Part shown: positions 2,870 to 5,924 of the stretch, piece after piece
How positions within the stretch are numbered: position 1 is the stretch's first letter
How the letters are laid out: every line of letters begins with the position of its first letter
From: Octopus sinensis
Taxonomy: Eukaryota
Direction of reading: 5' to 3'
Assembly: GCF_006345805.1 (NCBI RefSeq)
Contig: NW_021829382.1
Location: 1-6,312, forward strand
Length of the DNA stretch: 6,312 nt
Notes under the pieces: model-generated
Databases searched by the model: none
Seen by the model: the letters and a program-made list of their open reading frames with translations, nothing else
Told to the model about the DNA's origin: nothing
Program-made: the position numbers and the translations under genes

Positions 2870-3030
2870 ACACACACACACACACATATATATATCATAT
2901 ATATTGTCCTGCTCGCTTAGCCAGCGGGGTGGCATCATTTGAAGGCTAAAACAATGCGAAGCGCATTGTGACCAGCGATATCTAGCAACATCTGATAGCC
3001 TGGTCGGTCACAGTGAATACGGTGATATCA

Positions 3031-3089: not shown

Positions 3090-3300
3090 AATATATATTT
3101 ACATATTGTCGTACCATTTTTCTATTTCTATATGTATAATTCTACCCTTATGGGGCTATCTTTTACTGGAAAGTAGTACATTTGTATTGCATTATTATTT
3201 TCGTTCAAAAATCCTTCACTGTTCTCGTACTATTAACGGCTAGGCGTTCAGACGAGTATACCGGCATTGATGTGGCAATATTTGAAATTTTGTCTAGGTA

Positions 3301-3373
3301 AATGCAGCTGATGAAGACTAATCAAATTTACGTTGTCAAATGTATTTGAAGACTTAGAAACCGGTCCTGCATT
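3301..3373 (+). ncRNA. Minimal type I hammerhead ribozyme motif (HH-A)
   Basis: Stem I AATGCAG (3301-3307)/CTGCATT (3367-3373), 7 perfect bp; core CTGATGA (3308-3314); imperfect stem II including TCAAAT (3322-3327)/ATTTGA (3344-3349); GAAA (3357-3360); palindromic stem III ACCGGT; GTC triplet with predicted cleavage after 3366. Confidence 0.8.
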
Positions 3374-3565
3374 ATTGGAATAAGGATAGAGCAAGTATGG
3401 ATAAATGTTGAAATGGGAACAAAAGTATACAAAATACGAGAGCCCGTATATTACTTCGTTCAACTAATTGTCCTCATATGATTAGAAATAAGAATAATAG
3501 AATAAAAAAACGAACCCCTTATATATTTAATGTTTCGAAAATTTGAAAATTATAATGCATCTCCT

Positions 3566-3780
3566 GGTAAGGACGACATTATTTCGTTTATAATTCCATT
3601 TTCTAAGTAAATTAAGAATAATTTGGTCGAGACCATATACAAACTTTTTCTAAACACTTTATAAAGGAACCTAGATGCTATGATATTATTAAGCCCAGGT
3701 TTCTTAAAGTTTCATTTTCTGTATCAAATAATTTGGCCCAGGTTATACCTTCAATTAACGAAAGAAAATTTCTAATTTTC
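3566..3780 (+). pseudogene. PLE ORF remnant: post-RT thumb/linker region
   Basis: Manual translation with one stop and one frameshift (~3649): GKDDIISFIIPFSK*IKNNLVETIYKLF / SKHFIKEPRCYDIIKPRFLKVSFSVSNNLAQVIPSINERKF. This fits the recalled PLE pattern IIWFNPPFS..V.TNIG..FL.LI.KHF.....KIFN....KVSYS...N...II..HN. Confidence 0.72.
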
Positions 3781-4095
3781 ATAACAATTATAACGGTATC
3801 GAATGCAACAATAGTAAAGCTCTTGGAATAAATGTTAATAAGTAGTGTATACTTGAGTCTCCTAGTATACAAGGGGAAACAACCCAAGTTAAATCCCATC
3901 TCAACCTTTTGAATATAGTTGACTTGGTAAAAAGCAATCATACTAAATGGAATGATGTAAAGTCGTGCAGTTACTGTTTATATCTCGTTCAGAGATTTAT
4001 TATTGCTTGCATACAGTTTTTCGAAATAGGTGACGAAAAGTTACTGGAAAAACGATATAAGAATTTGCATTGGGACCTCCCTTCATCGAAAACCG

Positions 4096-4154
4096 GTGAT
4101 TGTCGTACGCTGAGGACAGGTCAAAACCTAGAAACTGCAGTCCGTGCGTATCAC
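4096..4154 (+). ncRNA. Minimal type I hammerhead ribozyme motif (HH-B)
   Basis: Stem I CGTACG (4104-4109)/CGTGCG (4143-4148; one G-U), extended by GTGAT (4096-4100)/ATCAC (4150-4154); core CTGAGGA (4110-4116); stem II AGGT-caaa-ACCT; GAAA (4131-4134); palindromic stem III ACTGCAGT; GTC triplet with predicted cleavage after 4142. Confidence 0.82.
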
Positions 4155-4321
4155 TTAGGTTGACGAGGGAAGGGTGACCTCCCTTTGCAAATACCATAAG
4201 GGCACAGAAAGTGTGCCTAAAGCCAGCTGGAGATGATGTTCTCCTGGGGCAACATGCTACAGTAACACCCACTCTTAGTGGTTAGCCATATTGAGATGGC
4301 AAGTATACCCCACAGAATAAT

Positions 4322-4760
4322 ATGAATAGTAATGAAAATATATTTTGTGATTGCAAGATTATAAGTAAATGTTTATTCAAAAATTATTGTAAGCGAAAAA
4401 AAGTAGTTTACAGGCGTAAAGTGAAATTTGGAGGTAAGAATTTCTTTGACATAGGAGCAACGCAAAATTTTATCAAGAAACGCATCTCTAATCACATTTA
4501 TACATTTAATAATGGGAACAGGTTCTCTTGTACCAGCCCCAGAAAATTTATTTTGGACTTGAAAGACAAGAAAAAGGATTTTGTCAGCGGAGTGGGATAT
4601 TGTAACAAAGGCTGCCGCTTACGAGGCTTGGAAATTCTTTTTGCTTTCTCTGCATCAAAGAGTTATACTAATCCTAAATCTCAGGCGGTGCTTCTTCAAT
4701 ACGAGGATGGAGACTGGTTTTTCATGTGCTCACGAATGTAAACAGGCTTTCAAAGACTAA
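4322..4760 (+). pseudogene. Frameshifted GIY-YIG endonuclease domain of a Penelope-like element, preceded by a Cys-rich knuckle
   Basis: CDC-x5-C-x5-C knuckle; VVY (4403-4411)...DIG.T (GIY/YIG motifs, Y>D); KKRISNH (catalytic R plus H); TSPRKFILDLK. After frameshifts: EWDIVTKAAAY (from 4590), CFLCIKE (from 4642) and FNTRMETGFSCAHECKQAFKD* (ends 4760). These reproduce the PLE endonuclease motif order including the Cys/His zinc ligands. Confidence 0.9.
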
Positions 4761-5173
4761 CATTAGATATATTATTGTCTTGAATAAATTAATTATATCT
4801 TAAAGCTACTAGTACATTAAATAGGTCGGTATTTCATGTTTAATACACGGACATCTTTAACTGTAAGAATAAAGAATTCTTAGTAGACATCATATAAATA
4901 TTAAAAATTATATTAAAATATTAATATTTAAATATTAATAATGCATCTTAAATACCAGGAAGGAGACTGATAATCCATGTATTCGCGCTTGTTTATGAGT
5001 GTTCAAAAACTTTCATCGCTTATATTATTGTCACTTATATTATCATCATGAATAATTAATTTTATATGAAAGCTACAAGAACTTTGAATATTTTTACAAA
5101 CGCACGGACATTTACATGATGAATGTTAACGCTCTCTATCCCTCAATTTCCCTCTATATATATGTCTTTCAAT

Positions 5174-5232: not shown

Positions 5233-5381
5233 GACACCTAGTTCATTCTAACTGCAACATTATATATATATATGTAGGTGCATGTGTATATGCACTTATA
5301 TGTAAGTGTATATTATGTATATGTACTTATTCTTGTATATGTGTACCTTCTATAATATTCATATTTGAATTGTACTTTATA

Positions 5382-5497
5382 ATCTCTGGGATATATATGT
5401 AAGTATCTCATTTATAACCACATATTACCTTAACACACCTGGCTAATATGAGCATAATGAGATACTCCTATCTACGTGGCTGAAACAGCTGTAAGAT
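5382..5497 (+). ncRNA. Degenerate type I hammerhead motif with long stem II (HH-C)
   Basis: Stem I ATCT (5382-5385)/AGAT (5494-5497); damaged core CTGGGA (one base short of CTGAGGA); stem II has an 11-bp perfect inverted repeat AGTATCTCATT (5402-5412)/AATGAGATACT (5456-5466) enclosing CATATTA/TAATATG; GAAA (5482-5485); palindromic ACAGCTGT; GTA triplet. Confidence 0.6.
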
Positions 5498-5504
5498 CTA
5501 GTTA

Positions 5505-5539
5505 ATATTTATATTTATATTTATTTATATTTATTTATA
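5505..5539. repeat. (ATATTT)n-type short tandem repeat
   Basis: Read directly; immediately downstream of HH-C. Confidence 0.75.
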
Positions 5540-5881
5540 CGTATTGTACTTATGGTATCATATTACTCATTGATGTGTACTGTTTTTTTCTGTATTATTG
5601 TGTTTGATCTGGATGTTCCTATGTAGTTGGTTAATAAATTATGTGAATGGGTATTATCTGGTAGTTGATGATTGATTAAAGTATATTCCTACTTTTTCTT
5701 ATTTTGTATTATGAATTTGTGGTAAAGGATTTTACCTTCGCCCATATAATACAATAAATGAATTAATTGCTTTGTAATTCTTAGCATTTTTTCTAGTAGC
5801 ATTACTGGGTGCTTTACTGGCAGTATATTGGATATATGTTATCCCATAGAGAGTTACACTCACAACTCCTATCTCACTTTG

Positions 5882-5884
<3 letters not shown>

Positions 5885-5924
<40 letters not shown>
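5885..5924. repeat. (TA)n microsatellite
   Basis: Read directly. Confidence 0.95.

Follow-up and report, generated by a model that had tools for sequence, protein, structure and literature searches.

The segment at 3962-4311 on the forward strand of the analysed octopus DNA (the window, a whole contig of 6.3 kb whose junctions are taken as they stand in the assembly) is very probably one non-LTR retrozyme monomer that lies nested within the linker of a broken copy of a Penelope-like element (PLE). The matching repeat unit of 355 bp is present less 2 bp and reaches to 4314, its last three bases (ACA, 4312-4314) being common to repeat and host; the insert proper thus measures 350 bp, and its 3' junction shows 3 bp of microhomology, without a target duplication. 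Its GC content is 0.449, whereas the host flanks have values of 0.293 and 0.341. A genome search with 3240-5060 gave 4,471 candidates, 40 of which were scored: 36 matched 3962-4314 alone, at 91-96% identity, three were host copies with the two flanks joined, and the remaining one was the window itself. The insert was absent from all 22 host-family loci examined; 18 of these extend across the site, represent 17 distinct copies and are all empty (the other four do not span it), the surplus length at the site being -15 to +18 bp as against 350 in the window. The host flanks of the window join exactly as they do in the empty copies. Since the insert is closer to its best relatives (91-96% identity) than the host is to its own (76-85%), the sequence comparison suggests that the host copy had decayed before the insertion. 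The original prediction had allowed either that this lineage carries a self-cleaving motif in its linker, for which none of the 17 spanning copies speaks, or that a retrozyme-like unit was inserted into the ORF; the second option is borne out by the empty sites and by the independent dispersal of the block, which recurs at hundreds of other places. This combination is the one that the original prediction had itself named as refuting a lineage-wide cassette. At another locus (L003, 1189-1422) the same host linker is likewise interrupted by an unrelated nested insert, about 217 bp long and with a TAAC repeat at its end.

The repeat to which the insert belongs, termed family A here, is non-coding, has a period of 353-358 bp and carries one type I hammerhead in each unit. 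Exact matches in the genome numbered 119 for the core and 588 for the 3' end of the unit, while the motif at 4082-4098, which serves as the LINE target described below, matched exactly 1,514 times. Because 28 of the first 30 loci with this motif were family A, we estimate that the family occupies approximately 1,400 sites. Its copies are 5'-truncated partial tandems in head-to-tail orientation, often with an inverted piece (5' inversions). One arm of such copies stops at 4314, the other continues for a further 46 bp, and the first 46 bp of the unit (3962-4007, + strand) recur as a 3' tail in many members of the family. Monomers and partial tandems make up the majority; L021 contains two cores and L023 three, spaced 355 bp apart, and long tandem arrays were not seen, the maximum being about 2.3 units (L023). 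(TA)n-like DNA followed nine of 22 tail matches by a crude rule, with four to six of the 22 being internal continuations. A second nested copy, flanked by a 14-bp duplication, was seen in a different PLE, within its RT region (L110). On these sequence features we classify family A as a non-LTR retrozyme, with expression, cleavage and circular forms being putative.

The layout of tails and inverted pieces has been described for PLEs (available text of PMC8557442), which would agree with family A being the solo pLTR of an autonomous PLE still to be found and its copies being 5'-truncated products of that element. The available parts of two further papers point the same way, as PLE hammerheads sit in pLTRs, mostly as single motifs (PMC4209133), and retrozymes are related to pLTRs (10.64898/2026.07.22.740005). 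We nevertheless regard this explanation as improbable: over-length copies continue into another unit and not into a 3' UTR or ORF, and tblastn with a 960-aa PLE protein of the same genome matched six of 126 family A and B loci, among which L109 and L110, when compared at the sequence level, proved to be a nested insertion. No autonomous PLE sharing its ends with family A was found among the PLE ORFs and loci compared.

The hammerhead itself occupies 4095-4155 on the + strand and was identified by descriptor scan and inspection of the sequence as a type I motif with an intact core. It consists of stem I (4104-4109/4143-4148), the core heptamer CUGAGGA (4110-4116), stem II (4118-4121/4126-4129) closed by a C4117.A4130 mismatch, the core GAAA (4131-4134) and a stem III of 2 bp inside the palindrome 4134-4141, with the predicted cut after C4142. 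None of 100 dinucleotide-shuffled versions of the block contained a hammerhead with zero core mismatches. The original claim of an intact core at 4096-4154 holds. The Rfam hammerhead models left 4096-4154 unreported at E<=10, their sole match in the window being 3290-3389 (HH9, E 0.008), and a covariance model made from 108 family A copies scored only 4085-4171, which it does by construction.

This hammerhead had also been predicted to be abutted on both sides by degenerate units, forming a tandem cassette. We found one hammerhead in the block and not several. A descriptor scan of both strands of 3780-4346 that allowed up to two core mismatches, a setting that gave a match in 27 of 100 shuffled blocks, returned the core at 4110 and no other, and neither flank contained a match to the family A covariance model with E below 0.36. 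The flanks instead pair with each other in a single long hairpin (4065-4190, + strand; z -3.57; 0/200 shuffles) that prolongs stem I. Its TTGACGA at 4160 had been a candidate for a second core and was rejected, as this heptamer and the purine run that follows pair with 4072-4092 in the fold of 4060-4190 and belong to the hairpin. A look-alike near 4030 was likewise rejected; it forms a separate hairpin, and its pseudo-core, read by eye, is altered in diverged subfamilies. The stretch 4160-4183 (TTGACGA-GGGA..TCCC) looks like the hammerhead's 5' half as found in diverged subfamilies and could conceivably descend from an ancient duplication, but no GAAA follows it and the heptamer varies (69/108).

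A stop-free frame does run through the ribozyme, as originally noted, and extends over 3846-4163. Dual coding, with which the frame had been considered compatible, did not stand up: the first 39 codons are the host's own linker frame, the last 67, up to the TGA at 4161, lie inside the insert, and this insert part is open in eight of 40 family A copies and often shifted by small indels. The family A unit has no conserved ORF, and with 350 nt, not a multiple of 3, the insert places the Cys knuckle out of frame with the host linker. A search with a 148-aa frame found no database homologue among longer proteins, and there was no PDB match. A PLE lineage whose coding linker holds a hammerhead cassette that is both translated and self-cleaving would account for the open frame, for the position of the ribozyme on the sense strand and for a linker of about 137 aa even without the insert, as against about 73 aa in relatives. 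With every spanning copy empty, the frame composed and shifted as described, and the 174-aa linker of an intact 960-aa relative free of hammerheads in a regex scan, we consider this extremely unlikely. The same very low probability applies to a retained PLE intron carrying the hammerhead or an assembly chimera: PLEs retain introns (PMC4209133, available text), an AG stands at 4314-4315 and the contig is short and unplaced, but the AG derives from host sequence found in empty copies, the 5' junction (3961/3962) is the unit start, the 3' junction is one of the natural ends of the family, the host flanks join as in empty copies and the block is dispersed independently of PLEs.

The nested monomer thus interrupts a PLE remnant on the + strand whose upstream part (3374-3961) comprises the post-thumb region, the remnant of a W-x-x-P motif near 3578 and an Asn-rich linker, with stops and frameshifts. 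Downstream (4312-4745, assigned by sequence match) follow the end of the linker, the Cys knuckle from 4346 and a degenerate GIY-YIG-type endonuclease, and then the 3' region of the element (4689-5090), with an internal repeat (4689-4779 versus 4942-5032, 70%). The PLE context given by the original prediction was confirmed by a match of 4343-4670 to the Cys-knuckle/endonuclease part of the intact 960-aa PLE ORF (39% identity, E 2e-16). Pfam showed no meaningful family for the window frames or for the 960-aa ORF. Together with an RT remnant found upstream in L073, the host shows the order RT, Cys-rich linker motif and C-terminal GIY-YIG endonuclease; we take it to be a probable Neptune-type PLE, the clade name being assigned from the motif. 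The premise that the linker is usually short was correct for relatives, with 72-83 aa in 24 of 26 (about 73 aa; outliers 66 and 147 aa; 26 of 34 proteins parsed), and incorrect for the host family, where about 137 aa are native, as are 174 aa in the family of the intact 960-aa ORF.

Several further repeats were noted in and around the window. The place of the host RT is occupied by a fragment of a second hammerhead family, family B (3106-3375, + strand; cores at 3308 and 3358), which ends 8 bases past its predicted cut, at the start of the host PLE remnant. Family B (also L032-L042) has a unit of about 428 bp, 86-92% identity and 1,219 first-look candidates, and its hammerhead has a long stem II and a palindromic stem III. 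Two near-identical intact 960-aa PLE ORFs (L096 1249-4128 and L097) contain two Asn-rich expansions, and a hammerhead with a long stem II lies upstream of the intact ORF (approximately L096 672-775). Window positions 5259-5895 match the upstream repeat and 5' region of this PLE (L096 546-1158) at 65% and include the decayed end of a hammerhead near 5481. The element at 2409-2810, which we presume to be SINE-like, lies amid microsatellites and is flanked by a 121-bp direct repeat (96%; 2230-2350 and 2908-3028).

Conservation of the ribozyme was assessed on an alignment of 108 rows, consisting of the window and 107 of 133 distinct segments; chimeric, junction-shifted and indel-bearing segments were left out, and about 60 of the rows came from searches with part of the core fixed. 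In this alignment 92.2% of cells were paired, compared with 26-43% in slid controls, and 73 cells had double changes versus 23.6 in shuffled data, covariation counts that are inflated by relatedness; the number of pairs in which both sides had changed did not reach significance (84/500 shuffles). The core 3-8 pair was C-G in 84 rows, U-A in 10, U.G in 12 and C.A in 2, and stem II exhibited swaps of A-U to G-C (70/34) and of G-C to A-U (91/11). At 10.1-11.1, the 11 U-A cells probably reflect CpG decay, and C.A replaces the usual G10.1-C11.1 in 68 of the 108 rows, the window subfamily included. The minimum-energy fold of the monomer is not the hammerhead (-16.5 versus -9.7 kcal/mol). The main variants of stem III are palindromic with a self-duplex of -11.1 kcal/mol, and a dimer mechanism would therefore fit. 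Among loci picked by the target motif, the canonical CUGANGA was present in one of 27, most cores being U3.G8, U3-A8 or U4C by eye, and for this reason cleavage may be weak or dispensable in family A. The U3-A8 variant has been reported for Schistosoma PLEs (PMC4209133, available text), and cleavage occurred in one of nine tested retrozyme dimers according to the accessible part of 10.64898/2026.07.22.740005. We consider the window subfamily about equally likely to be active or inactive as a dimer.

We propose that tandem family A copies would be transcribed and that two hammerheads likely pair via their palindromic stem III and excise monomers of about 355 nt, which may be circularised. A Penelope-type RT and endonuclease acting in trans would likely have inserted such a monomer after the host had decayed, the PLE enzyme priming on AT-rich DNA and copying the monomer from a defined 3' end. 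The tail, the 5' inversions and the (TA)n-like neighbours of family A would be compatible with such mobilisation. At the window locus cleavage likely has no role, because the hammerhead is alone, without a neighbouring partner, in a host without an intact ORF.

The family A unit is in turn the target of two LINE families that insert at one site 11 bases upstream of the hammerhead core. In the window this site is empty (4082-4098, + strand), 4085-4098 being the part that is duplicated in occupied copies; the duplications are 14-17 bp long, and in most of them variants specific to the locus are present on both sides. The association came to light through several family A copies that start at 4082-4085 behind a common long sequence. 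In five of eight fetched loci a LINE split one unit into a left half reaching to 4098-4101 and a right half resuming from 4082-4089; the other three loci were plain truncations, and the reading of these clustered 5' ends as the sign of an autonomous partner was rejected. The LINE at L171 encodes Exo_endo_phos (APE), RVT_1 and zf-RVT domains; zf-CCHC was scored in ORF1 at L173, and ORF1 at L171 had no Pfam match. Both families are presumably L1/Tx1-type, the name Tx1 being taken from the architecture, and the closest named relative among the 120 homologues listed was a protein of Argonauta hians (66%).

The two families, a and b, are about 82% alike; 30 loci of each, the query locus included, were retrieved with 3'-end queries from which the target had been left out. 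For family a, 22 of these adjoined the unit, six the target motif and another LINE, one the first base of a full U2 snRNA sequence and one other sequence; for family b, 26 adjoined the unit, one the target motif and another LINE and two a distant family A relative, and one was interrupted. Junctions with the target motif thus amounted to 28/30 and 27/30, respectively. When exact family b 3' ends were taken in genome order (first 30 of 46, overlapping with the loci of the 3'-end search), 25 adjoined the unit and four the motif and a LINE, and one was interrupted, placing 29 of 30 on the motif. Sixteen further full loci comprised 12 with both target halves, one with the left half only, one at U2 and two truncated LINEs in the distant relative. 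All targets, U2 included, have ATCG-N4-YY-GG in common, and the APE endonuclease of these LINEs would likely read TTY-ATCG-N4-YY-GGTG, a sequence almost confined to the retrozyme in this genome.

Over 26 loci the LINE ends were 97.7% alike and the retrozyme halves 79.9%, from which we infer that most of the LINE insertions are independent. The same figures, together with the recurrence of variants on both sides, led us to reject a composite LINE-retrozyme element as the main cause of the common junction; an inverted pair (L270/L271) suggests occasional co-mobilisation. One near full-length LINE (L193 1848-2041; L242) stands immediately 5' of base 1 of a U2 snRNA sequence, with a short duplication. 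About 16 bases of the retrozyme target precede its 5' end, which suggests, in this one case, that the RNA of the LINE had started within a retrozyme. The motif shared with the first bases of U2 further suggests a shift between RNA-gene and retrozyme targets. That octopod L1/Tx1-type LINEs have specialised on the retrozyme, are co-transcribed with it (one locus, L242) and could have read-through RNA trimmed by the ribozyme behind their 3' end is a tentative and rather doubtful proposal.

Other arrangements observed at these sites include a 1.8-kb element with a zinc-knuckle ORF1-like frame alone at the same retrozyme site (L173 6556-8394), possibly a non-autonomous third family. A distant family A relative with a U4C core and other stems carries LINE family b at ATCG (L244 and L245; E 7e-10 and 8e-9). 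LINE tandem arrays with the duplicated target motif between members mix families a and b (L204-L206, L183/L222 and L179/L226), and recombinant a/b copies occur in L170 and L252.

Among known systems, family A resembles metazoan non-LTR retrozymes as far as these are described in the available parts of PMC7229834 and 10.64898/2026.07.22.740005, with a unit of 354-358 bp where about 170-400 nt is the reported range, a single type I hammerhead in each unit, a GC content of 45%, and monomers and partial tandems. Its palindromic short stem III is like that of amphibian dimer-dependent motifs and its RNA fold is strongly self-paired as in retrozymes. It differs from the known non-LTR retrozymes of these texts in the limit of about 2.3 units, the many non-canonical cores, and the clear PLE-type tail and inversions; its host species lies outside the species sets that they give. 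Type I architecture, the palindromic stem III and U3-A8 covariance are shared with PLE pLTR hammerheads as covered in PMC4209133, whereas family A is a stand-alone repeat and not a terminal repeat of the surrounding PLE, and the window subfamily lacks G10.1-C11.1. The host agrees in domain order with the Neptune-type EN+ PLEs presented in PMC8557442 but, as a group, has an Asn-rich expanded linker of 137-174 aa versus about 73. For the Tx1 clade, the accessible text of PMC4494074 lists insertion of Tx1 into Tx1D, of Tx1-Mar into Mariner-N4_AMi and of Keno into U2 snRNA, as well as into microsatellites. The octopus LINEs are similar in having a zinc-knuckle ORF1, an APE-RT-zf-RVT ORF2 and a fixed site in a multicopy element, with targeting far above the 20% criterion of that paper; they differ in that the target is a hammerhead retroelement and not a DNA transposon, LTR element, microsatellite or RNA gene.

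From the sequence data we are highly confident that the association of the LINEs with the retrozyme site is real, and we think it somewhat probable that it is unreported. Titles and abstract beginnings in the literature covered, a range outside which Repbase and subscription papers fall, held no report of a retrozyme or pLTR as a LINE target, nor of cephalopod retrozymes, and the words ribozyme, retrozyme and hammerhead are all absent from the available text of the Octopus vulgaris repeat paper (PMC13282606); prior annotation of the association is possible. In the same literature we found no published account of a three-tier dependence of PLE, retrozyme and LINE.

In itself the flagged feature, a retrozyme inserted into a dead retrotransposon, is nothing unusual. 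The need of cleavage for mobilisation is left open in the available parts of PMC8557442 and PMC4209133, and family A, in which compensatory core changes occur beside amplified subfamilies with weakened cores, would allow this need to be tested for mobilisation of the PLE type. The target motif of the LINEs would likewise provide a new natural specificity of an APE endonuclease for testing in vitro.
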